Shown one piece after another: positions 5,703 to 41,247 of a DNA stretch of 54,427 nucleotides. The notes below the pieces were generated by a model. The model made no database searches and was not told the origin of the DNA. It saw only the letters and a list, made by a program, of their open reading frames with translations. Position numbers and translations under genes: made by a program. The stretch is from Salarias fasciatus (lineage: Eukaryota). Each line of letters begins with the position of its first letter. The stretch's first letter is position 1. The DNA lies in NCBI RefSeq assembly GCF_902148845.1, contig NC_043762.1, positions 29,154,760 through 29,209,186 on the forward strand. Direction: 5' to 3'.

Positions 5703-5961
5703 TCACTGGATGACCCCATTCTGTGTGGAGGAGTTCGTGTTGCTGGAGTCGCCCACATTGTGTCCGTTGTTCCGCAGGACCCGGCTCTTGTTCCCCGTCT
5801 GCTCCGAGGCTGTGCCCTCGAAGAGTTTGGCCATGAAAGCTAATCCGTTCTGCTTGATGTAGGACTTCCCGGCGAAGGTGTAGAGGACCGGATTGGCACA
5901 GCTGCTGATGAAGGCCAAGGCGGAGGTGACGGCGCGGCTGGATTTAGCAATATGATCCAAT
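5703..5961 (-). CDS. ltb4r: Leukotriene B4 receptor (BLT family GPCR), last coding exon covering TM7 and the C-tail. Encodes (V)LDHIAKSSRAVTSALAFISSCANPVLYTFAGKSYIKQNGLAFMAKLFEGTASEQ...VIQ*
   Basis: The NPxxY motif and C-tail match human LTB4R (ALAFLSSSVNPVLYACAG...GFVAKLLEGTGSEAS). Acceptor gtgcag at 5962-5967 on the minus strand. The stop codon is at 5703-5705. Confidence 0.75.
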
Positions 5962-6563
5962 CTGCACCGAGACACAATTCATCCACCGGCCGTTTAGAAA
6001 AGAACCCGAAGCTGAATGATGGCCCAAACAATAAGAAATGGCAAATAACTATATTACTGATGCAATCATGCAGATTCTGCCACTTTCTGTGTTTGCCGTG
6101 TTTTTCTGATGACTTTTTCAAGTTTTCGACATCTACTCATCCCCAAAACTTGCTGAAGCTTGTTTACTTCCTGCTGAGGATGACTCAGCGCCACAGTGAA
6201 GGGTTTAAAGCGCCTGACTCAGATTTATTATCAATACGGAAAGTTTCAGATATCAGTCACAGCGATATTGGCAGAAAATTTCTTCTTTCTGTTTTTTAAG
6301 AAGAAAAAATTCCAGCCAAGATGCAAGTTTTGCAAGTAAAAATGGTCAATAAAAGCAGTTTCACATAATGCCTGAAACAGTGAGAAACCGTCTTTGTGAG
6401 GGTTGATGTTTACTCACATTTCTCTCGTTGGTGAGTTGTCTGGGTACCATTCAGCCGCCACCTTGAAAAGAACAAACCACTCATCAGCTGTAAAGATTTG
6501 ACCAAAATTCTTAAATAGAAGCAGATTTTATATATTCAGATTACTTCAAACACATCCTCACAC

Positions 6564-6766
6564 ACCTGGATCATGTTGATCACATGGTACGGCAGCCAGA
6601 AGAGGCCGAACGTCACCACGATGGCCAGGATGAGGTTCTCGCTGCGGACCTTTCTCTGAAACTTGGTCTGCCTGAGACGCCTCAGGATCATGACGTAGCA
6701 GGTGATGATGATAACGTACGGCAGAAAGAACCCAGAAACGGTCTCGAAGGCGTACTGAAACCTGAC
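6564..6766 (-). CDS. ltb4r: ltb4r middle coding exon covering TM5, ICL3 and TM6. Encodes VRFQYAFETVSGFFLPYVIIITCYVMILRRLRQTKFQRKVRSENLILAIVVTFGLFWLPYHVINMIQ(V)
   Basis: Matches human LTB4R HRAFHLIFEAVTGFLLPFLAVVASYSDIGRRLQARRFRRSRRTGRLVVLIILTFAAFWLPYHVVNL. Acceptor ctgcag at 6767-6772. The donor is CAGGT|GTGTGA (exon ends at 6564, phase 2) or the alternative CAG|GTGTGT. The exact 3' end is uncertain by 2 nt. Confidence 0.7.
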
Positions 6767-7368
6767 CTGCAGACAGGAGGAGAGTCGTCAGAGTGACCGA
6801 GCAAGAACAGCTCAGGACAAGAACAAGCATGTGAGTTATTTCCAAGTTGGCAAAAATAAGGACCATTGTTGAGTTTTTATCATTTCCAGTAGGATTATTT
6901 ATCCGACAGCAGACGTCGTTGTTGTATTTCTGATGGAGAAACTGTAGAGGTCCCAGTTTCCTGGTTGATCAGAGGCTGATGGGCCTCCTGACCTCCACTC
7001 ACACCATAAAACACCACGAAACTTACTCCAGCTGACCAATAGACTTTGGATTTGACTTGTTATATAAACTTTCTTCTAATAAAGGTTACACTTTATCCAA
7101 TGACATGTATTTTTCCATTAAGGAGAACATGCAGCTGTGACGGCGTGTCGCCCATGGCGATGAAGTTACAGTGTTCTGCTGATTGACGTACGATGTTAGG
7201 AATTTACACGGAGAACGTGAGAACAGGTTTTATGGATCCATAGTCAAACCCGAACACAGATTTCCAGAGGAACTCACATTATTCTGGTGCAGTAAATTCA
7301 ACTGGAATGCTTGTGTTGTGATTTTTCCGACGAAAGGACTCATCAGTCGGTTTAAAACATTCACTCAC

Positions 7369-7947
7369 GTGTCGAGGGAGGGTGTGATTGGGCGCGCACA
7401 CCAGTCTCTTCTTGTCCTTCTCGTCGCTGTCGACCCTCACGTCTCTGAACACCAGCGACGGCAGCGAGATGAGCATGACCAGCACCCACATGCCCAGGAT
7501 GACCCTCCTCACGACCTTCCTGGTGATCCTCCGGGACACCCTGCGCGGGAACACCACGGCCAGCAGCCGGTGGATGCTCATCAGCGTGATGAGGAAGATG
7601 GAGGCGTACATGTTGGTGTTGCACAGGTAGAAGACGCCTTTGCACATGACGTTGCCGAACACCCAGCTCTGCTTGGCCAGGTAGATGATGAAGAAGACGG
7701 TGAGGGCCATGAGGAAGCCGTCGGCGCACGCCAGGTTGAGGATGAGCAGCGTGGTGACGGAGCGCCGCTGGATGCGCGCCACGATGCTCCAGACGACGAA
7801 GAGGTTTCCGGGGACGCCCAGGAGGAAGACCAGGCCCAGGATGAGGGCGCCCAGGGTGGTGGAGAAGTCATTGCTCACCACGCTGTCGTCCTCGTGGTTG
7901 GTGTCGTTGGGTGTGACGATGTGGAAGGAATGAGTGACGTTTGTCAT
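7369..7947 (-). CDS. ltb4r: ltb4r first coding exon (TM1-TM4). Encodes MTNVTHSFHIVTPNDTNHEDDSVVSNDFSTTLGALILGLVFLLGVPGNLFVVWSIVARIQRRSVTTLLILNLACADGF...RITRKVVRRVILGMWVLVMLISLPSLVFRDV...CAPNHTLPRH
   Basis: Strong match to human LTB4R ([38 protein letters not shown]...YASVLLITAMSLDRSLAV...RRVLAGIWVLSFLLATPVLAYRTV). The ATG at 7947-7945 has a good Kozak context (agcATGa). It is preceded by the acceptor gtgtctttcag at 7957-7967. Donor CAC|GTGAGT at 7368-7363. The plus ORF 7183-7980 and the other minus ORFs here are GC3 artefacts. Confidence 0.8.
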
Positions 7948-10163
7948 GCTTTGTTCCTGAAAGACACCAGATGCAGGTAGAAAATATGACATTCAGATGG
8001 TGTCAGCTGAAGAATAAGAACAATGATGGTTTTCACTTCATTCCTCAGGATCGGTGCTGGGTCTGTTGTCCTGATCACTCAGTCATCCTGATGAGTAATG
8101 GACATGTCGACATGTGATTCTGACTGAGCGGGCAGAGGAAAAGAAAATGAGGAAGACATTTCTAATGTTGAGTAAAATCAGTGCTTTCCTGTACTTGTTA
8201 TGTAATTTGTCTTCAAAAAGTATCTGAGTAATGAAGTAGTCTTCCATCTATAAAGCTGTACATTATTTCTTACTTACTTCTGACTGTTGAGCTTCGTCTC
8301 ATAACGAATTCATCGACGTACATCAGGTCATCTTCACTGAAGTAATAAGTTTGAAATTATGAAAGTTTTCACAACAAATATCTTTTAAAAGACTTCTGAT
8401 ACACTGTTTGACTGAAGTCATTTGAAGAGCATATAAAAAACATTCCTCTTCGATTTACTGCAGAAATGTTGGTGTTTGCACCAAATTTCTTGAGTTACAA
8501 AAACAAAACAAAACAGAAGAACAAAACAATTTCCTCTGGAAGGAAATTGTTTCTAACTGAATTAGGAGAGGAGGAAGTAAAATAAGAAAATACTGGAAGT
8601 AAATGTATTGTGCTTTGGTTCCTTTTCCTTTTTTTTTATTGAAATGAAATTAAAACTTTTGGGTGTGTCTGTTTCATTTGATGTTGGCGTCTTGAGGAGG
8701 ATTTTACATTAAAAAAAAATTATATAGAAATACTCCGATCACTGATGCCAGACTGGAGATGTTGTTTACCAAACTTTCACTTGTCTGACACCCTGACGCA
8801 GCCTCGAAAGTATGTGTATCAGAGCGGAGCGTGCAGCTCAGACTGCAGCACGCCAAAACACACCAAACTCCAGCAGCGCCGCTCCGAAGGGAAACTCTGC
8901 CTGAACCGTCCGCAGGTCACGTTCATTCATTCAACTCTTGCAATTTCCTCATTTCTTCCTCTCGCAGGATTATTTATCGCTGACCTTTCTCACGAAATAT
9001 GAGTGAAACGGCCACCAAAGGCCAACCAAGAAGATCATTTTGTATCCTGAAGCAAAATATACTAAATCCCCAACAAGCGCCCGAGGACCACGACAGAAAA
9101 ATGACACTGGTCATCCAATGTGACGAGAAGAAGAGATCACATCCCTGTTTCCTGGCTGAGGACTAATTTCCCGGCTCTGTTTGTATTCCCCTGGTAGCTT
9201 CCAGTGAGAGCAAATGGGTAAACAAAATGAATCAAAGCAAGCTTTACATCGGCAGTATGGAACTCAACACACATAATAAGTCCACAAATCAATGCTGAGA
9301 AGTGAAAACTGTTTCTCACAATAGAGTAACGCGGCTTTTTAGGATCATTCAGCTGTTTCCACTGATCCAAACTAGAGCAAGGTGCAAAGCACAAGAATAA
9401 ATCTAAACATTTTTGCATTTATTCAGAGATGTCTTTTAAAGCTTGTGAATTCAGAAACTCTTTGACAGACACAAAGACCAGTAAACACACCCTGATTTCA
9501 AAAGCAGTGAATATTAAGTCATGGGGCATCTTCATATTCCAATAATGTAAATAGGAAACAATAAACCGAAGACAAAATAGACTAAAGATCAGTGATGTGG
9601 GTGAAGCTGATTAAATCAGAGACAGGTGACAGAGGATTCAGGTGTGATCGCAGCAGAGGGAACTCACCTGAGTGTGAAGAGACGCCTCGCTCCTCTTGCT
9701 GTCCGGCTCTGACGCTGGTTCTGTCAGCTCTGCCTGTAATAAACTGAATCACATCCTGCCTCACAGGCTGGGACACGCTGGGCTCTGAGTGTGTGCAGGA
9801 GGGGTGTGTCTTTCTGTCACTCCCTTCTCCATCTCCGCTAAGCACTGTGTACATTTAACTCAAAATAACCGACCTGTGCGAAGAAAAGAAGGAAAAACAG
9901 TCACGTATCTCCTCTAGTTTCCAGTCTGTGGCGTCCTTTTTTATTATCATACATGCATTTCTGTGTGAAGGCAAGTCTCTAAATCACAAGCTGGTGTGGG
10001 GAGGAATTTGTGTCCTGGGGGTCTGTTTTTTTTTTTCTTTTCTTTTTACTGTGAGTCAACTATTGCGTAAAGACAGAAGTGAAGGTAATTGTAATGCTTT
10101 CTAATTCTTGCACAAGCTCCGTCGGTGTGATGACAGCAGACACGCAAGAGCAAGCATGCATAT

Positions 10164-10701: not shown

Positions 10702-12899
10702 ATTAACACGACACTGGACACATCTTTCACTGGGTTTCTCTCATCCTTTAAGTTGTGGCAGCCCTTCAAAGGATTCATTAGTTATTCAACTAGTTTTACG
10801 ACTCCCTAAAACCTTCCATTTCTGTGTTTGTCCTGTGTTTGAACTGCTGATAATGTGTGCAGACAGTAACACTATTTACTGTTCAGTTGCTGAAGTTTGT
10901 GAAAACTGTTGCTTTAAAACAAATGATATTGAGCCTGGACTTGAACCGAGGGTCTTTCCCTGTGAGCCAGGAGTGCGAACCACTTCAATACTGTGCTTCA
11001 CCCTTTAAAGGGCTCTCACTGAAAGATGTGGAATTAGAGAGATTCAGCATTCAGGTTTAGTAAAGGATCTGTTTGGTGTTGGTGAGTTAATTCAGCCAAA
11101 AAACACACAGAAATGTTAAAAATCACCTGGAAAGTCTCAAACCAGGAGTAAAAGAGGCCCAATTTAATTTCTAAATGTGTGCCTGAAACCTTGATTGAGT
11201 GTGAAATAAGGAAGAAGTCATTCAATCAAATAGTTTTCTTTGTAGTTGAAATGCATCAAATGAAACTCTGGGTTTGTTTCTTCTGAAAGGTTTCTTTCTT
11301 TATTTCTTCAAAGTTAGTTTTCCAAAACTCTTGCACTACTGAATGATTTACGGAGCCCCAGACATCTAAAATAAAACTTTCAATTGTGGCCACACGTTAA
11401 TATTTTCTGCTCAGCACAAACGAACGCATCATGGCCTCATACAGTACGTTGTTGGGCTGAAGAGCCACACGAGGCCGCTCAGCTGCAGGCTGCAGGCGCC
11501 TGTCTTAAAACCAAACAAAGTCACATTTTATTTCACAATTTACAGGCTGAAATTCTCACTGGATGTCTTCAGAAACCTTCCGTTTCACTTTAATCATCCC
11601 ACGGTTCAAACGTCTTGAAAAGCCGTCTGACTGTGATGGATGTATGGATTTACATTCCCACACGGCAGCAGCAGAAACCCAAATTGCAAAATGCAGGAAA
11701 TCAAAGTGACAGATGAGACGCTGCAAACAGCTGAACTGGGGGTGACTAATATTTTACTGTCTGCAGGGAAAGAGTACAGCCACCAGTAAGTACAGGATGA
11801 TCTTCTCAGAGGACATGATGCTGCCTGTCTGTGTGGAGTTTGCATGTTTTACAGCTGATCCCAGCTGATTTTGGGCAAAATCTTCCATGTCGCCTCAGTT
11901 TCTAATTATTTATCTATTTGCTCTTTTATACTTGTTACCTGAATGTGACTCTTTCCCTGATAGTGGCGGTCCACTAACTCCTGCTGAAGTCCTGGGGAAC
12001 TGTTGCTCCGGCCTGCTGGTAGCACTTTCCCCCTCTCCACAGCCGCGCTGCAACATCTTGACATCAGTCCAGGATCCAGGGCCTGCCCACACAACCCCCA
12101 GAGGACGACAGGGAGGGAGGGAGAGGGGGAGCGCGCCACCATAACATACGTCTAATGATTGTGAGAACCGGAGGAGGAGGGCGAGGAGAGAGAGAGAGAG
12201 AGAGAGAGGGGTATATGGGATGGGGTGGAGGTGGGGGGGAGCAGGGCCGAGGCGAGGAGAGCCAGAGAGAGTGTGTGTTTATTTAAGTTCTTCGTCTCCT
12301 GACTCAGACAGAGAGCAGACTGCAGAGGATAATGAGAAACAGATCTTCGGTGGGGAGGAAGGAGGGAGGGGAGACTCGGCAGAAGGAGGGACGAGGAGGA
12401 CCAAGGAGCAAAAAAAAAAAAAAAAAACAATGATGCAGAAGAAAAAGGGGGTGGAGAGGAAAGAGTGACAGCCAGAGAGGGGCTGTCCTGTCATTACCAC
12501 AGGAAATAGGTCCTCTATGTTCCTCACAGCTCGGATGGCCATGCTTACAATGGCAGGGTTCTGGAGACGGTGACCCACTTTTATCTGACCTGCACATGAC
12601 TGCAAAAGGAATAATATTGTTTTACAGTGTGGAAAGTTTGGACCCACAGCAAACAGCAGCGTGGAGACCATTTAATACATCAAAGCAGGGAGCAATCCCA
12701 CATTTGCACATTTGTGTGTTCAGTAAATATGATGCTGGTGTGAGGAGAAGGAGAAGCCTCCAGAGAGAGAGAGAGCAGAGGGGAGAGGGGGAGAGGCTGG
12801 GCAGGGGGGATCCGTGAGTGACAGGCGGGAGCTCCTATAGGGAATAAGTAACGGACCAACTGCAGCTGGGAAACCCACCCAAAGGCAATTAAGGGTAAA

Positions 12900-14800: not shown

Positions 14801-15439
14801 CTGCTGTTCCGGTTGGGGTGAGGGGACAGAACGAGAAGGAGATAGGACAGAGAGTTTCTTGTATCTACATACATAAACAGAGAGCACATGGGCTACAAGA
14901 GGAACAATCATCAGCAACACGCAGTTATGAAACATTAACATTGAAACGAGAGAAAGGAGCAGAACTGGGAGCCAGTTCCACATGGTAGGAGCCCGTGGTT
15001 AAGGAACCTCCTGCACCCACTGGGTCTGGGTTGCGTCAATAAATCAATGGATCAACTGTTTTGATTGATGCCCAATTAGAAACTGATTGCATCCATTGAG
15101 TCCAGGTTGTAGCATTAGATCAATGGATCAGCCGCCATTGATGTTCTGTTTGCGATCCCTCCATCCTCTTCTTCCAGGGTTTCGGTGTTCTGACTTTTAA
15201 GTGTTCCATAGTGGAATGAACTGTCAATCCCAGAGAGAGCGACAGACAGCAAGCAAGCTAGCAAGCTCCCGGTTTACAGCAACAACAAGAAAAAGGGTCC
15301 AGGAAAGCCTGGACCAGCCCTAACTATAAGCTTTACTAAAAAGAAAGGTCTTATGCCTTGAAAGCAGAGACTGTGTCAGCCTCCTTAAAGGTATAATACA
15401 ACATTTTCTCGAAAAGACGAAGCCCCACGTCTGTTACTC

Positions 15440-15645
15440 ACTTTTTGAACAACGCGCATGCGCCAGACCATCCGCCCGGCTCTCCTGCTTCTCCCAGAAA
15501 ACGCGGAAGTGTACGAGCGCGATCTCCTCTTCTCCGGCATGCACAGCTCTGTACAGTTTCTGCGATCCGCCTCGCTCATAAATAAAGCTTTTTTTTTTCC
15601 CGAAACAGCTACAGTTTCATTATGTCAGACTCGCCATCGGTAAGT
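15440..15645 (+). promoter_or_regulatory. Promoter-like module inside nfatc4 intron 1, with a short ATG-initiated exon and a GTAAGT donor
   Basis: Two GCGCATGCGC (NRF1) palindromes at 15447-15456 and 15686-15695, and a ctgattgg CCAAT box. The ATG at 15622 reads MSDSPS and is followed immediately by a perfect donor GTAAGT at 15640-15645. Confidence 0.3.
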
Positions 15646-15666
15646 ACGAGCTCAGAAGCTCACCGG

Positions 15667-16555
15667 CTACATAAACACTCTGAATGCGCATGCGCAAAAG
15701 GGAGAAGCTGATTGGGCGCAAGCACGGAGAACCGCCTTACGAAAGCAGCTCGTCAGAATGATTGACAAACAGACCCACCAATTATTTAGGTGATCCACCC
15801 GGAAATCAAAATGTTGTATTACACCTTTAACAGAGACTGGAGCTGGTTCCACGTGACAGGAAGAGGTAGCTGAAAGCTCTGCTCCTGTTCTACTGTTAGA
15901 GAACCTAGGAACCTCCAGCAGACCAGCACTCTGAGAACCAAGTGTTCTCCTGGGACAGTATGGGACTAACAGCTGTTTAAGATTTGATGGGGCCTGGTTG
16001 TTCAGGGCTTTATAGGTTGAGAGAAGGATTTTAAATTCTATTCTAGATTTAACAGGAAGCAGTGAAGGGAAGCTCATATTGGGGTGATATGATCTCTCCT
16101 GATGGTTCTTGTGAGAACTCTTGCTGCAGCATTTTGAACCAGTTGAAGACTTTTTAGCCAGTTGTTGGTTCCTGATAACAGGGAATTACAGTAAACTACA
16201 CTGGGGCTCCTACTTTGACAAGTTGATCGGTGTCATCTGGTTTCAGGGATAGGTAGATCTGTATATCATCTGCATAGCAGTGGAAGTTAATGGAGTGTTT
16301 CCTGATGATGTTCCTAGAGGAAGCATGTATAATGTGAAGAGTATAGGTCCCAGAACAGAACCCTGTGGAACTCCATATTTAACTTTGATCCGAGCTGAGT
16401 CAGAGTCATCATTAACATTAATTCTGTGGAACCTGTCTGCTAAATATGATTGAAATCAGTTTAATGCTGAACCTTTAATCCCAATAATATATTCTAGTCT
16501 CTGTAGTAGAATATCATGATCAACAGGATCAAATGCAGCACTGAGACCTAACAGG
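15667..16555 (-). mobile_element. Fragment of a non-LTR retrotransposon (LINE; reverse transcriptase C-terminal part and 3' region), 5' truncated
   Basis: The minus-strand translation contains [20 protein letters not shown]...[11 protein letters not shown] (the RT YADD motif) and the teleost-typical 3' ORF tail (ORF 15667-16077: ...KILLSTYKALNNQAPSNLKQLLVPY...LLEVPRFSNSRTG...). The reading frame is decayed. Confidence 0.7.
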
Positions 16556-20752: not shown

Positions 20753-20915
20753 ATCTAACGCTCTCCCGCCGCTGGACTGGCCGCTGCCCACCCAGTTCGA
20801 CCAGTACGAGCTGCGTATCGAGGTGCAGCCTCGGCCGCACCACCGGGCCCACTACGAGACGGAGGGCAGCAGGGGAGCGGTGAAAGCCGCCCCGACGGGG
20901 CATCCCGTCGTCAAG
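20753..20915 (+). CDS. nfatc4: nfatc4 coding exon 5 (start of the Rel-homology domain). Encodes [54 protein letters not shown]
   Basis: Near-identical to human [54 protein letters not shown]. Acceptor cgtcctgcag, donor AAG|GTGAAC. Confidence 0.95.
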
Positions 20916-20992
20916 GTGAACACGCAGACTGCTGTGTCTCACGGTGGATCAGCCGTTTGAATTCATCGCTCGCTTTGTGTCTCCCTCTGCAG

Positions 20993-21093
20993 CTGTGCGG
21001 ATACTCGGAGAGGAAGCCACTCTCTCTCCAGGTTTTTGTTGGGACCGCAGACGACCGGTCAATTAGACCTCATCCCTTCTATCAGATACACAG
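20993..21093 (+). CDS. nfatc4: nfatc4 coding exon 6. Encodes [33 protein letters not shown](R)
   Basis: Matches human [33 protein letters not shown]. Acceptor ctccctctgcag, donor CAG|GTACTG. Confidence 0.9.
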
Positions 21094-21363
21094 GTACTGA
21101 ACCCGAGGAACTCATTTTACAACATGCACTGATGTTCAGGGGACACAAACTGGTGGGACGCATGATCTGACCACCGAGGCTGCAGCCATCGCAGAACAAG
21201 CTGCTCCCAGTGACGGCCCAGGAAACGACTGGAAGCGGTCATTCTGTGTGTCGTTTGCTCTGGAGGAGGCCATTAAGACGTATTCTGTTATATTTCTTAT
21301 GCAACATGGCAAAATAGACATGCATCAGAAACTCACAGCATAGCTAACTTTTTCCATGATTGC

Positions 21364-22040
21364 TAAAGGGATACTTCAACATTTTGGCAAATTGGCACCA
21401 TTTAACGCAATTCCTTAGTCATTTCGAACAGCATACTTACTTTTTTTGTGAGGGCGAGCTGTTGTTTATTCAGAGGCGAGTCGGGGAAGGTTTTCGGGAC
21501 GGACACAATGGAAGTGGATGGTATTTTTGGTTCCCCCTCGTCAAACTCATAAAATACAAAATCCAACAACCCCAAAACACTTTGGTGGACACGTTATAAT
21601 CCACACATTCACTACGCTGTGGAACACCAACAAATAATATTGTAGCGTTACGACACTGAAGCAAATACTGGGAACTACTTTTTCTTTTGAAATCACTACG
21701 CCCAGACGCCATGTTTAGTAAGTAGTTCCGTCTTAGCAACCTTCGCATAAACAACTCAATCCGGTCATTTTACATTAATATTTCACAGCGTAGTGAATGT
21801 GCGGATTATAACGTGTCCACCAAAGTGTTTTGGGGTTGTTTGATTTTGTATTTGATGAGTTTGACGAGGGGGAATAAAAATACCATCCACTTCCATTGTG
21901 TCCGTCCCGAAAACCTTCCCCAACTCGCCTCTGGATAAACAACATCTCGCCCTCCCAAAAAAAGTAAGTATGCATGCTGTTCGAAATGATTAAGGAATTG
22001 CACTAAATAGGCCAATTTGCCAAAATGTTGAAGTATCCCT
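21364..22040. mobile_element. Foldback element. A long, near-perfect inverted repeat with arms of about 260-280 bp (21364-21615 and 21765-22040) around a loop of about 150 bp
   Basis: The reverse complement of the right arm aligns to the left arm at about 90% identity. The mirrored ORFs 21360-21599 (+) and 21806-22015 (-) give the same peptide. It lies in nfatc4 intron 6 and directly abuts the MITE at 22041. Confidence 0.8.
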
Positions 22041-22588
22041 TTAAAGGTGCATTAAGGAGTTTGCACGTTTTCTGCGAAACAACGGCCCCTGCAGGCCTTG
22101 GGCGTAATGCAGTTTAGTGAAACACTCGTGCCTGTGGTTTGGGTCCATGTACATGCACGGAAGAGGGGAACTCCTTCCTCGGTCTTTAAGTAGCGTTCGA
22201 GTAAAATGTAAGTTTCTTTTGCCTGGTGGGTCTGTGCTGGAGCTGTGGCAGTGCTAGAAGCCGGTCTTTTCTTACTTTCTGGAAGCTCCATCCTCAGTAC
22301 TGCTCAGTTGTTGCTGCTAAGCATCTGGCGGAGTAATGGCGGACAAAACGAAACCTCAGGAAATCAGGCCAGCCGGAACGCGCATTACGTCACATCATCT
22401 CAAATTCTCCCCAAAAAAATTCTGGTGCCGGACCGGCACTGCAACTTTCAAGTGATAATTTAGCGCTGTTACCAGTACTTACAATGAATATGTCAGGGCA
22501 CATTGTACACATCATTGAATATTTATGACATATTTATGTTGGAAAATAAGTATTTTTAAAGTTGAAAAACTCCTTAATGCACCTTTAA
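22041..22588. mobile_element. MITE-like non-autonomous DNA transposon, copy 1 (548 bp). Terminal inverted repeat TTAAAGGTGCATTAAGGAGTTT. Flanked by TTAA, or by TAA/TTA
   Basis: The 5' end is ttaaaggtgcattaaggagtttgcacg. The 3' end is aaaactccttaatgcacctttaa. A second copy lies at 37311-38247. Confidence 0.8.
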
Positions 22589-23468
22589 GCGAACCAAATC
22601 AAAAACCTGTCTACTTAATTAAGAAAGTATCACAGTGATGCAATCTTTCTACTTATGAAAAAAAAACCCAACCATATAGCGAAGCCTTAAAAAAGATCAA
22701 TAATACAAAAATTACTGTAGTTCCAAAAAATAAAGAAAAATATTGAAATAACCCCCCAGTAAAGACTTATGATATTATGAGTAAGTTTCATAGCTATGGA
22801 GACACAAAGCACCTGAAGTACTTACTGGATATTTTAAACATCCAGACATTCAGTCCAGGTTCATGCTGAGTGAGCCGGACTGGCAAAATAACCTTAAATG
22901 GAAACTTTAAAAAACTTGTTAGTCTTGGTGCAGAGTATACATGATGAAAATGTCTTTATTTTCCCAACACTAAACAACTATGATTGAAAATTACTGCAAT
23001 CTCCATATGGAGCCATTTACTGCTGTCAGGCTAATGATAGCTTTAAGATTTCATAGCAGCATCACTTATAATCCAGCTGTGTTTTTTTTTTTAATGTTTT
23101 CAGTTTGCTTTGTGGTTTTTGGGCTGCATTGGAGCCTCTTGCCTGCTGGTTTCAGTTGGTGGGCATGACCTTTGACACCCTTGTCTTACTGTAACATGAC
23201 CTTTGAAAAAAAGAATGTAATCCACACAAAAGCTGCTAAGAGGCCACGATAGACTGAGATTATTCAAATCAGTCAATTAATCAATAAATGCTGTTTCATT
23301 TTTTTCCCCAAGTCGAACAATAGCTTCATGAGATCACAAGCTATTAAGACATTTGACAAACAATGACTTAAAGCAAAGAAAAGTCACAAACTCCTATAAT
23401 CACCAGCTGTTCTCCGTTTCATTAGAAGACCATGAAGCCGCTCAGTCCTGCTGTTTCCTCTCTTCCAG

Positions 23469-23570
23469 GGTGACGGGGAAGATGGTGGGCACTGCCAGTC
23501 ATGAGAGCGTCCAGGCAGGGACCAAAGTGCTGGACATCCCCCTCAACCCCGAGAACAACATGACGGCCCT
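23469..23570 (+). CDS. nfatc4: nfatc4 coding exon 7. Encodes VTGKMVGTASHESVQAGTKVLDIPLNPENNMTA(L)
   Basis: Matches human [34 protein letters not shown]. Acceptor ctcttccag, donor CT|GTGAGT. Confidence 0.9.
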
Positions 23571-24105
23571 GTGAGTCTGGGATGAGCGGCAGAGAACAGA
23601 TTACAACTCCTGTTTCCAGCTTTCAGCAGAAAATTCACTGTAAACAAATTAGCGGAGCAACGTAACTTAATACATGCACTTGCGTCACAGAGCCAATTTT
23701 TTTCCCTCTTTTCAGTTCATAGTACTTACTGCTTCCTCCCTTGATTCATCTTTTACACCACTTAATCAGATTTAGAGTTTTTTTGTGCAGAAGTCGACCT
23801 CAGCCGACTGCACAGGTAGCACATGCAAACATTCCATAGAAAGACTGAGAATATGAGATTAGGACTATTTCAACCATGAGTTGAGAGCGCTAACTACTAT
23901 AAGGCTGTGTGACGCCTTATTTGTTCATTTTTCCTTCACACACACATGCTTATGCACCTCTGTCATGGATGGATTTCTGATTGTGCCGACTTTCATTTAT
24001 ATTGACAATTAATGTGTAACTGAAGTTTCATAATCACTATGTACTATTTTTGTGACATTTTGCTTTTACTGAAGTAATCAAGTAGCCATGATCTCTGGTT
24101 TTCAG

Positions 24106-24524: not shown

Positions 24525-24609
24525 GTGAACGCCTGAAAAACTGAAACTCAGCATCGTAACTAGGAGGATCGATATGATTGTCACTAACCTGAACTCCACC
24601 TCGTGTCAG

Positions 24610-24665
24610 ACGGTAAGCTGCAGTGGGAGGAGGAGGCTCACGTGGACCGAGACAACAGCAACGAG
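24610..24665 (+). CDS. nfatc4: nfatc4 coding exon 10. Encodes DGKLQWEEEAHVDRDNSNE
   Basis: Matches human DGKLQWEEEATVNRLQSNE. Acceptor tcgtgtcag, donor GAG|GTAACT. Confidence 0.9.
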
Positions 24666-24667
24666 GT

Positions 24668-26765
24668 AACTAATATTAATAATAATAATATTAATAATAA
24701 TACATTTTATTTCACAGCGCCTTTCACAACACTCAAGGACGCTTTACACAAGATTAAAAACACATTACAGATAAATAAAACAACAAGGAAAAGGACAACG
24801 TAACACAGGGAAAAGAGAGAAATTACAGGTGATAAGAAGATTGAAACAGGTGAGTTTTGAGTCTGGATTTGAGCTGAGATAGAGAGATGATGTGGATGTC
24901 TGGAGGAGAGAGTTCAGAGTAGAGGAGCAGAGCAGCTGGAAGCTCTGCTCCCCATTGGTGCTGAGGAGGGCGGAGGCCACAGAGAGGTGGAAGACCTGAG
25001 GGAACGTGAGGGGGGCCAACGTGAAGGAGATGGGGGGCAGATTGTGGATGGCTTTGAATGTAAACAGAAGAATCTTGAAAATGATCCGGACATTGACAGG
25101 GAGCCAGTGGAGCTGCTGGAGGACGGGTGATGTGGTGAGAGGAAGGGGTTTTGGTGATGATGGAGCTGCTGAGTTCTGGACCAGCTGGAGCTGATGGAGG
25201 GATTTGTGGGGGACACCAAAGAGGAGGGAGTTACAGTAGTCGAGGCGGGAGGTGACGAGGCTGTGGACCAGGATGGCAGTGGTCTGAGGGGTGAGAGAGG
25301 GGCGAGAGAGCGGCGAGAGAGGGGCGAGAGAGGGGCAGAGGCGGTTTATATTGCGTAGGTGGAAGTATGCAGAACGAGTGATGTTATTAATGTGGGAGTG
25401 GAAGGAAAGTGAGCTGTGGAGGACGACACCCAGACTCTACCCTGAGGGGAGGGGACACTGAGGAGCTGTTGATGGTGAGGGAAAACCTGTCAGATTTGGA
25501 GAGTGTGGACTTGGTGCCAACAAGAAGAAGTATTGTTATATTACTATTTAATTTCAGGAAGTTTGAGGTGAACCAGGATTTGATTTCAGAGATACAGAGG
25601 GTGAGGGAGGAGGCGGGAGAGTGGAGTTTGGTTTACTGGAGAGAGAGAGAGCTGGGTGTCGTCTGCGCAGCAGTGAAAATTAATACCAAATTTCCGAAAA
25701 ATGTTGCCGAGGGGAAGGAGGTATATGATGAAGAGGAGGGGCCCCAGGACGGAGCCTTGGGGCACACCAGAAGTGACGGGGGAGGGCTGAGAGGTGAAAG
25801 ACTTGAGCTGGATGAACTGAGAGCTCCAGTGAGGGAGGAGAGAAACCAGAGAAGGGGGAGTGAGTGATGCCGATGGAGGAGAGTCTATTGAGCAGGATGG
25901 GGTGAGAAACGGTGAGGAAGGCTGCACTCAGATCGAGGAGGATGAGGATGGAGATGAGACCAGAGTCAGCAGCCATGAGGAGGTCATCAGTGATCTTTAT
26001 TAGTGCTGTTTCAGTGCTGTGGCGGGAATGGAAACCGGACTGGAAACGTTGATGAACTGTTGAGGGTGAGATGGGAGTGGAGTTGAGAGGCGACAATTTT
26101 CAATAGGATTTTGGAGATGAAGGGAAGGTGAGAAATGGGGCGGAGCTTATTGAAGTTATTGGGATCTGAACCAGGTTTCTTCAGGATGGGGCTGACGGCT
26201 GCAGATTTAAAGAGAGCAGGAACAGTTCCAGAGGACAGGGAGGAGTGAATGATGGCTGATATGAGGGGGAGTAGAGAGGGGAGGCAGGATTTGACCAGGA
26301 CTGTGGGGAGGGGGTCCAGATGACAGGCTGAAGGCTTGGAATTGGTGATGAGGTCGGCGATATCAGAGGGGGGAGGGAGTTCAAAGGTGGAAAGTAGATG
26401 AGATGGTGGGAGAGGAACAGAGGAAGGGAGAGGGGAGGTAGTGGAGCCGAGGTGTTGGTGGATTTTCAAGACCTTGTCATTAAAGAACTGGAGAACAGAG
26501 TTCCAGGTCTCTGCAGAGTACAGGTGGGGGGGTAAAGAGTCAGGGGGTTGGATGATGCTGTTGAAAACGGAAAAGAGTGTCTTACTGCTGCCAGCATTAG
26601 AGCAGATGAGACCAGAATAGTATTGTGATTTAGCATGAGATGTGGAGTCCTTATAAAGAGATAGGTGTGCAGGATACGTGTCTTTGTGGATGTTGAGACC
26701 AGTAAACTTCCTGACCTCCAGGTCTGAGGTCGTCTGACGTAAAGTGACGCGCTGTGTTTGACCTC
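24668..26765 (-). mobile_element. LINE insertion of about 2.1 kb filling most of nfatc4 intron 10. It is an L2/CR1-like non-LTR retrotransposon with a decayed ORF2 (reverse transcriptase) and a microsatellite 3' tail
   Basis: The minus-strand ORF fragments carry RT motifs: [60 protein letters not shown], and [21 protein letters not shown]...[10 protein letters not shown]. The 3' end on the minus strand is ...aaggcgctgtgaaataaaatgt(att)n at 24668-24720. The frames are interrupted by shifts. Confidence 0.85.
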
Positions 26766-26769
26766 GTAG

Positions 26770-26896
26770 TGTCTGCTGTGTGTGAGGGTGCCGGCCTACA
26801 GCGACCTGTCCGTCAGCCGGCCGGTGCCGGTCAGCCTGTACGTCTCCAACGGGAAACGGAAGCGGAGCAGCACTCACTGCTTCAAGTATCTCCCCG
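26770..26896 (+). CDS. nfatc4: nfatc4 coding exon 11. Encodes CLLCVRVPAYSDLSVSRPVPVSLYVSNGKRKRSSTHCFKYLP
   Basis: Matches human VTLTLTVPEYSNKRVSRPVQVYFYVSNGRRKRSPTQSFRFLP. Acceptor gacctcgtag, donor CCCG|GTGAGT. The minus ORF 26011-26877 overlaps this exon only by chance. Confidence 0.85.

Positions 26897-30205: not shown

Positions 30206-30208
<3 letters not shown>

Positions 30209-30300
<92 letters not shown>
30209..30300. repeat. (GT)n microsatellite of about 46 units
   Basis: Seen directly. Confidence 0.95.
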
Positions 30301-30303
<3 letters not shown>

Positions 30304-30378
30304 TTTTGTGGGCCCATTACACCTGTGAGATCTGTAGGGACGAAGCTGGACTGAGGTGAGGGTGAACTGGAGGGCAAA

Positions 30379-30379
<1 letters not shown>

Positions 30380-30446
<67 letters not shown>
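30380..30446. repeat. (CA)n microsatellite of about 33 units
   Basis: Seen directly. It is in inverted orientation to the (GT)n run 80 bp upstream. Confidence 0.95.
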
Positions 30447-35513: not shown

Positions 35514-36395
35514 TCAAGCACTGACGAAGACCAGGCGGGTGGAGTAGATCAGGTCGGCCAGGTACAGGATGAAGTTGACGGCAGAGAGCACAGCCACCGC
35601 CATGAGCTTATCCCAGATGCACAGTCCCATCGCGCTGCTGCACTGGTACGGCCTGTTCTTGTTCCCCCCGTGTCTGGGGTCGAAGTTGAAAATGGGCCAG
35701 ATGATGGTCGCTGAGAGGTAGAGGACCACGGCCAGCAGAGCGTAGCCCGACAGGAAGCGGGCGAACGGAAAGGGGAGACAGCCGGTGCACTCGCCGATGC
35801 AGAGCATGATGATGCCCGCCGACAGGATGAAGCAGATGCAGTAGACGGACATGCAGTACTTGAGGGCGTCGTGGCGGTCGTACAGCACGGGGTCGCTGAC
35901 GAAGACGAAGATGACGCAGGCCACAAAGGTCTCGCAGACTTTCAGCAGGCCGGGGGCCGTGGCCATGTAGCCGGCGACCTCGCCGGGACGCGCCTTGCTG
36001 ATGCTCACCTCGCTCATGTAGGCGATGGTGGCCAGGCAGGAGAAGACGGTGGACACGATGCGGTAGTCGCGGGTCTCGTTTGGCCCCGAGGAGCCCTTGA
36101 GGTAGTACAGGGGGAAGATGATGGAGGCGGACAAGCAGAAGACGGCGGAGTAGCAGGCGAAGGTGATGGGGAAGTTCTTCCAGGACACCGGGGCTCTGGA
36201 CTGCAGCCCGAAGAGCTCCACCAGCAGGACCAGCAGGGTGCCGGCGAAGCCGAAGGCCCAGCAGAACATGCACCAGTCCTTGGTGCCGTGGTACAATCTG
36301 CCGCCGTGCACGGCCACAGAGAAGGCCACGCAGGTGAAGACCAGGGCTGCTAGCCGTGTCCAGAGCAGAGGGCTGGAGTGGAGGACGATGGCCAT
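35514..36395 (-). CDS. myadm: Myeloid-associated differentiation marker (MYADM) family protein with a double MARVEL domain. Single-exon 293 aa coding sequence
   Basis: ORF from ATG at 36395 to the stop at 35514-35516. It aligns with human MYADM ([25 protein letters not shown] / [36 protein letters not shown] / NLLAYVADLVHSAHLVFV), which supports an 8-TM topology. The acceptor cctcttacag at about 36505-36515 on the minus strand suggests an upstream non-coding exon. The overlapping ORFs 35608-36498, 35549-35926 and 35871-36353 are GC3 artefacts. Confidence 0.8.
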
Positions 36396-37310
36396 GGTGA
36401 GAGGTGGAGTGGCTTAGCAAGAAGACTGGAAGGATTCCCGTCAGAGATGAGTCTCTTCGGTCTGGGAGTGACTCCCTTACAGCGCTAGCATCAGCCACTC
36501 AGGCAGAGAAAACTGTAAGAGGAAAAAGACAACGGAAAGAATTAGTAAGCAGTACTTTGGGGTTTTATGTTGTGTTTCATGACTTCAGGATGAAGTCAGA
36601 CGCGGCCGTTGGAGGGTAACAGCCTGCAGCGCTCTCCACATTAGCTCTGTCCGCCCACATGGCGTCTTCTGGGACGCACAATAGCGTTATTGTATTTTTA
36701 TGAATGGTTGAAACAACAAGTCAAATCAGGGAAACACAGTTGGAAACCACAAATAAAGCCTGCTCTGTGGTCCCACTAAACTCTCCTCATTTACATCTGG
36801 TCAAATCATCTGGAGACCAGTCAGCGCTTTTCCTTGTGCTTTCTCAAAACTCCGACTTGCTCTCTTAAAGGTGTTCTGAGTCTGTTTTGGTCTGACATTC
36901 CTCCGTGGTCACGTCCCGGCTGACGGGTGGGGCGCCGCAACCTCCACTGACCCTCTGGCTGTGTCTGTCATCGTGACCCTAAACATGGCCCTGCTCATTC
37001 GGTCATCTCCTCTTCCCTGGCAGCCAATCAGAGGCTCATAACCGTTTTTCAGCAAAACATTCACTACAGTGTTCTGTCTATGCAGTCTGATGCTTTTGAG
37101 AATGTTTCATGTTGGAATGGTATTAGGTTCACAGCAGGTCTTTATTTCACATTGTTGAAAAATCATATCATCTCAAAATTCAGCGTTGTTCGTGGATATG
37201 CTGCTTCTAATTAATTGGGATTTTGAAATGAAAACTTTTAATCAAAACTAAACATATATTGATAAGCATCGAAACTTTCTCTACAAACTCATTGTAAAAG
37301 TTAAAGGGAC

Positions 37311-38247
37311 TTAAAGGTGCCTTAAGGAGTTTGCACGTTTTATGCAAAACAGCGCCCCCTGCAGGCCTTGGGCGTAATGCAGCTTAGTGAAAAACTCGTC
37401 CCTGTGGCTCCCGTGCACAGAAGAGAGGAACTCCTTCTTCGCTCGTTTAGTAGCGCTCAAGTAAGATTTAAGTTTCTTCTCCCTGGTGGAGTCTGTGTGG
37501 AGCTGTGGCAGTGCTAGAAGCCAGTCTGTTCTTACTTTCTGGAAGATCCTGCTCAGTTGTTGCTCACTAAGCATCTGGCGGAGTAATGGCGGAAAAAGCG
37601 AAACTTAAAGGTGCTGTAGGCAGGATTTTGCTAGTCAATGCTAATTTTTCTGTGTTTTCTTTGGATTAAATGTTAGAGTATCCATTGATAATCCTTTAGG
37701 AGTGTAGCATAATTGCACTACCGCGAGGGCGCAGCGTTTCCATCTGTCTCTGTTCTGAGCTGAAAAGGAATCTCGACAGCTCCAGGTATCTTTGACCAAT
37801 CAGAAGAGCCCATGAGGCTCTAACCGTGATTGTTCGAGGGGCGTTCGTCGCACGTTCTTGTGGGAGGGGCTTAACTTGCGTGAGGGCGTGATGTCAGAGA
37901 AAACAGGACAGGATTGGCTGTGCTGGGTTTCAAATGGCCATCTTAGATGGATCAAATCGCCATCTTGCTCAGGTAACCCTAAGCAAGATGGCGGAGATGC
38001 GGAATCCTGCCTACAGCACCTTTAACAAGGGAGAGCGCGCATTACATCATTCCTTTCAAATTCTCCCCCAAAAAAAACCGCTGGTGCCGGACCGGCACTG
38101 CAACTTTCAAGCGACAATTTAGCGCTGTTAGAGGTTCTTGTAATGAATATGTCAGGGCACATTGTACACATCATTAAAAATGTGTAACATATTTATGGTG
38201 GAAAATAAGTATTTTTAAGGTTGTAAAACTCCTTAATGCACCTTTAA
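37311..38247. mobile_element. MITE copy 2 of the same family as 22041-22588 (937 bp). It contains a nested insertion
   Basis: The same termini, ttaaaggtgc(c/a)ttaaggagtttgcacg ... aaaactccttaatgcacctttaa, and collinear internal sequence (ctggcggagtaatggcgga..., ...ggtgccggaccggcactgcaactttcaag...). The paired ORFs 22052-22291 / 37311-37574 and 22245-22463 / 37934-38122 reflect the two copies. Confidence 0.8.
37605..38025. mobile_element. Second, unrelated MITE nested inside MITE copy 2. TIR AGGTGCTGTAGGCAGG ... CCTGCCTACAGCACCT, flanked by TTAA on both sides
   Basis: The left junction is aaacTTAAAGGTGCTGTAGGCAGGATT and the right junction is AATCCTGCCTACAGCACCTTTAAcaagg. This segment is absent from copy 1. 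Confidence 0.7.
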
Positions 38248-38269
38248 GGCAACTTTTCAAAATTTACCT

Positions 38270-39050
38270 CAGTGCTGCCATGATAGGCGCTGCGGGTAAC
38301 TGCAGCCACCAGCCAAGGCTGCATGGAGCGCGCACAAACATTTTACAGAATGTCCGGCTTCACAGCACTGCACCAGGGATGCTCATGCTGGGGGGGCTCG
38401 GCTCGTGCTTGGATTCACAGACCAGGAGCAAATGTATAATATGCCGGGAGAGCGGACAAATGAAACTACAAATAGAACTACAAATTAACTTTCTTCTGTT
38501 GATTTTTGGTTTGTCAGCAAGTGAGCAGCGGTGTATTTGCGCACGCGCGATTCATTTGAAATGTGGACGCAGAGCGGTGTGGGTCTCCTCTCTGCTCTGA
38601 CTGCAGCAGGGGGCGCTGCTGAGACTGGCCGCCTGTGAGAGCTTTGCGACGGGGGAGGGGCTCACAGCAGCACCCGCTGCTAGTTGAGGACAGCGGAGAC
38701 GTCCTGTCACGTCTCCAGAGCACCAGAAAAAGTTGCTAAGTTTGTCGCTAGTTACTTTTGACAAAAAAAAGTCGCCAAGAGGCTTTGGAAAGTCGCCAGA
38801 TTTAGCGATAAAATTAGTCACCAAGTTGGCAACACTGCCCGCCCCTGATCCCAGCAGTGTTTGAGTCCGCGTCCACGGCGGCCATGTTCTTCCTGTTCGG
38901 CAACGCGCATACAGCGTCAATTTACGTCACATCCCCACGATTGCGCGGGAAATTCGGACCCCGAACAGCAACAAATTATTTGGCACACAGCCTGTATAAG
39001 GCAACAGACAGATACGCGGATTGGCCTGTTATTTTAGGTTTTTAATGCTT
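38270..39050. repeat. Possible interspersed repeat or DNA transposon remnant with reiterated GTCGCCA / GTTGCTAAGTTTGTCGCTAG motifs
   Basis: Internal short direct repeats (gtcgccaagagg, gtcgccagattt, agtcaccaagttgg). The ORFs 38280-38600 and 38552-38920 have no recognisable protein similarity. Repeat status is unverified. Confidence 0.25.
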
Positions 39051-41247
39051 CACGACACATTAGCATTGAATAAACTGGAAATGCATGTGAAGTTTTTCAC
39101 AAATCTTGCCTTAAGTCCCTTTAACAACTGTCATAAAGTTGCCAAAGTAGCTCAGTGCTGTCAATTACACTGCAGAAAGGGTATGAAGGAGAAGTTGAGC
39201 AACTTCAACTGTCAATAAATTAAACTTTTAATAGTGTGTGAATATTAGTGGCCTTTCAGTAATTGTAGATATATTTTAAAGCTTTCCTGATTCTACATTT
39301 GAACTTAAAACTGTATAAGATGGTGACAAAGTGTAAGTTTTCAGTCAAGTTATGAGTGTGGTCCTACAAGTGTGCATTCAGTTGTGAAATGGCTGCAGCG
39401 ATTTAAATCATTCAAACTGAAACCTGTTGTGTAACCTGTGCACTAAGATGTGATCTAATGACACACTGTCATGAGTGAAGTGTAAGATTAGCCGATATCC
39501 TCTATTATAAGTTCTCACTGAATGCTGCTGCATAACGGCCAACATTAAGAAGTACCGACTGGTTTATCTTACACCAGAAGCTCTTTGTTTATTGTTTTTG
39601 CGGCACACAAATTCTGAAACTCGTCCATTAACAGAGATTTTGTTTCTTGCCTCATGAAACCCGCAGAACTCTGGTGGAGACTGCAGACGAGAGGAGGAAC
39701 CTCTGACCACACTCACTGCGCTCTCTCCCCCATTCCTCCTCACACCCATTTCCCATTTGGCTGCACAAATCATTCCCACTTTACACAGACGGACAACCAT
39801 AAACACGAAGAATAGGAATGTTTAGATTAGTTCCATTAGACACCGATGAAACGGTCGGGGGCGTGAGGCAAAGAGCCACCCTGGCGGCGGTGCAGCAGTC
39901 GAAAGGAGAAGACAATAAAAAGGCCAAAATGGAAAAGAGAGCCCTTGATAATGGTGCAGGATGTCTCCGGGAGGGGGGAGCACGGGGGAACCCCTGCGCC
40001 TCGGCCACAGACGGACACATGGTTTAAACACGGTGATGGAGTGGAATAGCAAGAGGGTGAGTCACCGGCGGGCCCGGCTCTTCTTTCACCTCTCCTCACT
40101 CTCTCCCCACCTCCTCCCTGACTTCTGCTAAGATTTTCCAACTGGCTGATGCCTTCCAGATGAGCTGCAGTCTAGCTGCTGCCGAACAACTGGGAACTCT
40201 GTCGCACTTGCCAGGTTCTTTCCCTCTTTCTTGCTTCCTTCCTTCCTTTCCTCCTGACGGTCCGATTTGGTGGCTACTCCCTCTCTTTTCCATCAGTCCT
40301 CCTCGTTCTCTGTCCTCATTCAGTACTCCCTCTCTGGATCAAGCTGCCAGTTACGCTCAATGTAAACCACTGAAAATAAACGTATATGGAGGGCCGTCAT
40401 GGAAAAATCAACCCTCCTCCACTGCTGCCGCCTTCGCTTTGCCGGTCATGGCATCAATTCAGGAAAGAAATAAGAGAGGAAAATGCCACATGCGAGAAGA
40501 AAAATAAAAAAATAGTGTGGAAAACTTGTGTTTTTCACAGCAGAGTGTGGAAAACACGACATGCGCACACTGACAGGGGCGCTTCCCCACTTAAAGGAGG
40601 TGCTGAAAATAGGCTCATATATGAGGACAGGAAGCACCGTGCGCTTCTGCACAGTCTGTTTTTTTATACACACACGGTTGATAAGGCCGAGATGCTCAGG
40701 AAGCAAGTGTTTGTCTCTGGCGGAGAGGTCATGTGCGCTGCTTGTTTTGTTGTCATGATACAAAATCACTTACTCAATTTCACCCATAATCCACTTAGGG
40801 GGAGGCATGGGTCGAAGCACAAGATGGGATCTGTTGGCAAACCGTCTCTGACTGCTTGTTCGTTTAGTGTCTCAGCACGGTGCTTTCAACTGCTTCGGCA
40901 AAAACACACACTTCTTTTTACTCGGTTTGACATTTTTCTGAGAAACCAAATGCAGTATTTTCCACGGTGAAAAGGCTGAAGCCACATGTGTGAGACGCCG
41001 GGGAGTCAGACCGCTCCGCCACACCCACTCAGCAGCCAGGGGCACCTGGACATGTCGTCCCATTCAGATGGAAAACACACAGGTCAAAATGTGTGTATGT
41101 GTGTTTTATTTTCCTCAAATGAAAAACCAAAGGCACCCCAGTTTTGTGTGTGTGTGTGTTTGTGTGTGTGTCTGACAGCTGTATCGTTTAGGTTCATTCA
41201 TTGACAGTGGTGGAGGTGGGTGTGCCGCCTGCCACACCCTGCTCTCA

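Follow-up and report, generated by a model that had tools for sequence, protein, structure and literature searches.

The nfatc4 gene of the blenny Salarias fasciatus carries, within one of its introns, a long segment of DNA that can fold back on itself, which raises the question of what kind of element this is, how it came to lie there and whether it matters to its host gene. We examined it within a window of 54,427 nucleotides, by which we mean the whole stretch of DNA that was analysed. Self-alignment defined the foldback as a near-palindrome of 674 bp, with two arms flanking a spacer of 154 nt (Table 1), and BLAST matched it to its own reverse complement from end to end. An inverted-repeat scan returned four collinear pairs that jointly cover 21364-22043, the outermost being 33 nt long and 100% identical. 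The arms were then compared in a gapped alignment that begins inside the TTAA-type flanks; they agree at 243 of 257 aligned positions, mismatch at 14 and are further separated by three indels (1, 4 and 1 nt), so that identity is 94.6% with gaps ignored and 92.4% with gaps included; the longest perfect run measures 46 bp. A first-pass annotation had placed an inverted repeat here, with arms of about 270 bp at roughly 90% identity and a gap of about 150 bp; the repeat is indeed present over its entire length, the estimates are close to our measurements (259 and 261 nt, 154 nt), and the aligned arms do not fall below the proposed identity. The same annotation called the element perfect, which holds for the outer 33 bp but not for the rest of the arms, where the mismatches and gaps lie. 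Direct-repeat families and tandem repeats were sought in the foldback and none was found, and the 54 kb searched contain a single copy of it. The inverted repeats of the window are dominated by a different structure, a (CA)n tract facing a (GT)n tract at 30208-30446, which forms an inverted microsatellite pair of ~70 nt at 97-100% identity.

Table 1. Coordinates of the foldback, related elements and genes in the window (position 1 is the first letter of the window).
Feature	Coordinates	Strand	Remarks
Left target-site duplication of the foldback	21363-21366		Now CTAA, read from the sequence; one base decayed from TTAA
Left arm	21367-21625		Terminal inverted repeat of 259 nt; starts AGGGATACTTCAACATTTTGG; AGGGA terminus fits AGGRR (PMC6004289)
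Central spacer	21626-21779		Hairpin loop, 154 nt; unique, no second match in the window
Right arm	21780-22040		Terminal inverted repeat of 261 nt; ends ...GTATCCCT
Shared TTAA	22041-22044		Right duplication of the foldback and left duplication of the neighbour MITE
Neighbour MITE	22045-22588		Perfect TIRs of 22 nt, AGGTGCATTAAGGAGTTT; right TTAA at 22585-22588
TTAA-flanked MITE	15385-15830		446 bp; TIR AGGT(A/G)TAATACAACATTTT
Triple-nested TTAA/AGG cluster	37301-39124		TIR of the outer element AGGGACTTAAGGCAA
Second copy of the neighbour-MITE family	37311-38247		84-87% identical to the 22041-22588 element
Third MITE of the cluster	37605-38025		Nested inside the 37311-38247 copy
nfatc4 host intron	21094-23468	+	2375 nt; between RHD exons 20993-21093 and 23469-23571
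Leukotriene-B4-receptor-like GPCR gene	5703-7992	minus	Upstream of nfatc4; best PDB matches LTB4R1, E = 2e-34
MARVEL-domain (MYADM-like) gene	35514-36395	minus	Downstream of nfatc4; ORF letter-for-letter XP_029971377.1

The termini of the foldback were examined in order to identify the class of element. The sequence runs from gattg CTAA-AGGGATACTTCAAC on the left to GTTGAAGTATCCCT-TTAA-AGGTGC on the right, and a paired-terminus scan matched CTAA-AGGGATAC at the left end with TTAA-AGGGATAC, read as the reverse complement, at the right end. The right terminus had earlier been read as CCCTT followed by TAA; it is instead ...GTATCCCT followed by a full TTAA. The element therefore reads AGGGA...TCCCT, with AGGGA at both ends in agreement with the AGGRR motif of T2-MITEs and Kolobok, and its flanks match TTAA at seven of eight bases (TTAA on the right, CTAA on the left), which we accept as a TTAA duplication. 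The T2-MITEs of Xenopus are defined by their TTAA target and by ends of the AGGRR type, and Kolobok transposons share both (PMC6004289); in full-length Xenopus Kolobok elements, TTAA borders ends such as AGGGGAACT (PMC6004289). Among percomorph fishes, the gsdf promoter of sablefish contains a Kolobok MITE between duplicated TTAA sites (PMC8327909). From these features we infer that the foldback is probably a non-autonomous, cut-and-paste, TTAA-targeting copy of the Kolobok/T2-MITE type, an assignment for which the TTAA and the terminal motif together provide only nine informative bases. Kolobok elements are described with short TIRs (PMC8327909), and because the arms of the foldback exceed these it is filed here as a long-TIR variant that has become a nearly complete palindrome. 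Its length and coding capacity are those of a short, non-coding element (longest ORFs 79-94 aa). The 79-aa left-arm ORF had no homologue either in a set of 5.8 billion proteins or in an exhaustive HMMER scan of 1.84 billion representatives. Four ORFs of the foldback and two of the neighbour MITE, looked up as exact sequences, gave no match, and no transposase-like ORF tied to the foldback termini is present in the window.

Other superfamilies leave different footprints at their insertion sites. A hAT MITE needs an 8-bp duplication, and the 8-bp flanks of the foldback, ATGATTGC and AAGGTGCA, differ; when the foldback and its neighbour were taken jointly as a hAT element the 8-bp flanks were likewise unmatched. 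Duplications of TA and TWA were also rejected on the flanks. A Tc1/mariner (Stowaway-like) MITE, which would have duplicated TA and have the ends AAGGG...CCCTT, deserves separate mention: read as TA-AAGGGATAC...GTATCCCTT-TA, the element has intact flanks at either end, and a mutation has to be assumed only if TTAA was duplicated. We nevertheless consider such an origin very unlikely. With a TA duplication the outer bases should be random, but among the six AGG-ended elements in the window a full TTAA stands at 11 of 12 flanks, including all ten of the five sister elements. Tc1/mariner termini are moreover of the CAGT type, and those of the foldback are unlike them.

The five sister elements are paired elements with TTAA/AGG... 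ends, recovered by the paired-terminus scan together with an outer element that was recognised separately. The motif TTAAAGG/CCTTTAA occurs 22 times in the window, against 8.9 ± 3.1 expected. Unpaired TTAAAGG termini were observed at 11005, 32558, 36865 and 39124, among others, and could represent solo ends, or else decayed copies from the TTAA-type transposon group. The MITE at 15385-15830 has a TIR, AGGT(A/G)TAATACAACATTTT, similar to the AGGGATACTTCAACATTTT of the foldback, and may be mobilised by the same transposase. Neighbouring elements start with AGGTG or AGGTA and so depart from strict AGGRR. PiggyBac also targets and duplicates TTAA, and a piggyBac-derived MITE, that is a deletion derivative of a TTAA-duplicating piggyBac-like element, would account for the TTAA and CTAA that flank the foldback and for a sister element with a clean 4-bp TTAA duplication. 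PiggyBac-like elements, though, start with CCC... and end with ...GGG beside TTAA. The foldback shows AGGGA...TCCCT at these positions, as T2/Kolobok elements with AGGRR do (PMC6004289), and all six elements of the window begin with AGG; a piggyBac origin is thus unlikely.

The cluster at 37301-39124 provided an opportunity to observe these elements relative to an empty site. The left TIR of its outer element (AGGGAC-TTAA-GGCAA) is split at the internal TTAA by the 37311-38247 copy. The orthologous locus of Ophioblennius macclurei (GCA_966212585.1, OZ308459.1), reached through the adjacent MARVEL gene, aligns to the window in non-coding DNA at ~70-85% identity, and the cluster (37305-39124) is missing from it; taking out the cluster together with one TTAA leaves Salarias flanks that align gaplessly with the Ophioblennius sequence across the junction (TTGTAAAAGTTAACAACTGTCATAAAG versus TTGTAAAGGTTCAGAACAGCCATAAAA). 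This alignment demonstrates that elements of the AGGGA type with TTAA flanks moved in the Salarias lineage after its split from Ophioblennius, and that they nest in one another's TTAA sites. This evidence concerns the cluster, since the Ophioblennius locus ends 5-7 kb short of the intron with the foldback. At a TTAA target, an empty site does not distinguish a duplication of TA from one of TTAA, so that in this respect it is equally compatible with the TA duplication of Tc1/mariner.

The location of the foldback was established through its host gene. A 228-aa RHD model, assembled from plus-strand exons with a few junction residues added, matched the structures of NFATc2 and NFATc1 with E = 1e-98 and agreed at every residue with a Salarias fasciatus UniRef protein (100% from end to end of the model). 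The next-best matches, at 95-96%, are named NFATc4, and proteins named c1, c2 and c3 follow at 60-67%, in agreement with the nfatc4 intron proposed by the first-pass annotation. The bounds of the intron are secure because the spliced RHD model is exact, and the foldback starts 273 nt downstream of its 5' splice site. The gene order around nfatc4 adds to this picture. The GPCR gene upstream matches the human LTB4R-NFATC4 neighbourhood, and the downstream ORF is that of the Salarias fasciatus homologue of myeloid-associated differentiation marker, an exact match that identifies the window as blenny DNA; the order of nfatc4 and the MARVEL gene is kept in locus L005 and in locus L006, that of Ophioblennius macclurei. 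The orthologous intron measures ~530 and ~610 nt in two other, more distant fishes, compared with 2375 nt here, and these introns, which are unalignable, display no similarity to the foldback or to the neighbour MITE. The two elements together occupy 1226 bp including their TTAA flanks, about half or more of a fourfold expansion of the intron, and the difference in length suggests that the insertion of the foldback would be specific to the lineage. A further intron of nfatc4, between the exons at 24608-24669 and ~26767, holds long ORFs on the minus strand (25586-26877) that resemble fragments of LINE reverse transcriptase, as judged by eye from their translations; this intron is ~2.1 kb here and 56-95 nt in the two other fishes.

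A plausible course of events can be outlined for the Kolobok/T2-type element. A Kolobok-type transposase, supplied in trans, would have recognised the AGGGA... termini of the foldback, which would already have been palindromic, and, in the Salarias lineage, inserted it into a TTAA of the nfatc4 intron with duplication of that target. The next inverted-repeat element, at 22041-22588, adjoins the foldback directly, as had been noticed previously, and this contact had been attributed to serial insertion into a hotspot. The chemistry of TTAA insertion offers a better explanation: both elements target TTAA and share the one at 22041-22044, similar nesting is seen at 37301-39124, and no special hotspot is needed because the duplication that flanks a resident element is itself a fresh TTAA target. 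In the simplest order, the neighbour MITE would have inserted first and the foldback then into the TTAA at its left flank, resulting in the layout TTAA-foldback-TTAA-neighbour-TTAA, of which the leftmost T would later have mutated to C while the arms drifted ~5% apart.

The divergence between the arms, 0.057 (JC), gives an indication of age. Aligned blocks of Salarias and Ophioblennius differ by ~0.17-0.37, a range in which the blocks of highest identity include exons; provided that the arms did not yet differ when the element inserted, the foldback would have roughly 1/6 to 1/3 of the age of the split between the two genera. On the same assumption it would be younger than the neighbour-MITE family, whose two copies differ by 13-16%.

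We also considered whether the palindrome was made on the spot rather than inserted. It could be a single-copy structure that arose by inverted duplication of the end of a shorter TTAA-type MITE, for which template switching or faulty gap repair at the site are possible routes. The single copy in 54 kb is consistent with such an event, and Kolobok TIRs are normally short, so that arms of this length need some duplication event in any case. The collections searched returned no match (in metagenome contigs, an internal 26-mer and a terminal 23-mer, used as exact patterns, gave zero), a result of little weight as these do not include S. fasciatus genome DNA. Both outer ends, however, carry a full terminus and a TTAA-type flank, which fits the integration of a pre-formed palindrome, and a local origin appears distinctly unlikely. 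Two MITEs inserted head to head were rejected as a source, as the inner ends of the arms carry no TTAA/AGG termini.

In light of the geometry of the foldback, we calculated the folding of its transcripts. The plus-strand RNA is predicted to form one long hairpin with a minimum free energy of -450.8 kcal/mol, compared with -156 ± 6 for shuffled sequences (z = -46), which bears out the single-hairpin fold anticipated by the first-pass annotation. The RNA of the minus strand reached -469.1 kcal/mol (z = -42) and the foldback as single-stranded DNA -288 (z = -36). The folding energies relative to shuffles exclude a chance origin of the pairing. The emphasis previously placed on the sense orientation of the element in the pre-mRNA is without meaning for a near-palindrome, because both strands fold equally well.

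Such a stable hairpin on the transcribed strand, with duplex runs of up to 46 bp, could suggest a selected functional RNA, one that either gives rise to endogenous siRNAs or miRNAs or regulates nfatc4 splicing, and MITE-derived miRNA genes in other organisms set a precedent. A number of observations speak against this. No Rfam family was matched over 20800-23000 on either strand at E <= 1, the orthologous introns of two other fishes lack the foldback, which is hence not conserved, and its arms are decaying at 5% with indels, a pattern in which compensatory maintenance is not seen. The minus strand folds better than the plus strand, as symmetry at the level of DNA would predict and selection at the level of RNA would not, and palindromic fish repeats are documented targets of ADAR (PMC8096273). 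We therefore regard a selected RNA as highly improbable. The foldback is most likely a neutral passenger that encodes nothing and has no selected function.

In the nfatc4 pre-mRNA the foldback would form an imperfect dsRNA stem of ~260 bp, which would probably be edited promiscuously (A-to-I) by ADAR and lost with the spliced-out intron. Many zebrafish repeats belong to a class termed approximate palindromic sequences; they self-fold and undergo extensive A-to-I editing by ADAR, and in one ANGEL copy 62 of 63 adenosines are edited (PMC8096273). No other fate of such RNA is as well documented in fish. Self-folding fish repeats are documented in vertebrate somatic tissue as hyper-edited by ADAR and not as sources of hairpin siRNAs (PMC8096273). 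By analogy with these repeats, ADAR editing would be the likeliest fate of the foldback RNA, ahead of a dedicated small-RNA function. Hairpin-derived small RNAs, effects on splicing and DNA instability may also occur.

A more far-reaching proposal is that the foldback belongs to an undescribed blenny family of near-complete Kolobok-type palindromes, whose arms would grow and spread through hairpin intermediates and whose dsRNA would measurably affect the nfatc4 pre-mRNA; we hold this to be very improbable. A single-strand hairpin intermediate is the model proposed for zebrafish Angel. Were such a family real, effects on nfatc4 could arise via editing, innate dsRNA sensing, looping of the intron or small RNAs. 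For the Kolobok/T2-type passenger, significance beyond annotation is small. If transcribed, it would nonetheless place a long intronic dsRNA within a gene for an immune and developmental transcription factor, and it represents a reasonable locus at which to test ADAR editing in a non-model fish.

Comparison with known systems places these features in context. The foldback elements (FB) of Drosophila share with the blenny element very long inverted termini, a short unique centre and the capacity to form hairpins or cruciforms. FB arms are built of tandem subrepeats, whereas those of the blenny element contain no tandem or direct repeats, and an FB-type identity was rejected on this ground. Zebrafish ANGEL is likewise a teleost element and almost entirely palindromic, with single strands that self-pair (Izsvak 1999, as summarised in PMC12628747), but it is classed as hAT (PMC8096273), whereas the foldback is unrelated to it in sequence, shows no 8-bp duplication and has TTAA/AGGRR ends. 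The Kolobok MITE of sablefish gsdf also resides in a percomorph, is non-coding, measures a few hundred bp and has a TTAA duplication; it differs in its TIRs of 12 bp, compared with ~260 bp here, and is present in at least 228 copies (PMC8327909). The T2 MITEs of Xenopus (for example Xmix/T2-A1, T2-C and the Kolobok-N families), non-autonomous partners of Kolobok, agree with the foldback in TTAA and AGGRR (AGGGA here) and, like it, are short, non-coding and found in or near genes (PMC6004289). Here the host is a blenny, sequence similarity is limited to the terminus, and the inverted ends reach ~260 bp and make up 76% of the element; one Xenopus member, Kolobok-N2_XT, has palindromic internal repeats that recall the palindromic foldback (PMC12676858). 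Taken together, MITEs that target TTAA and are of a Kolobok/T2-like kind, one of them a palindrome with long arms, are now documented in a blenny genome, where TTAA-type MITEs are seen to nest into each other's TTAA sites.
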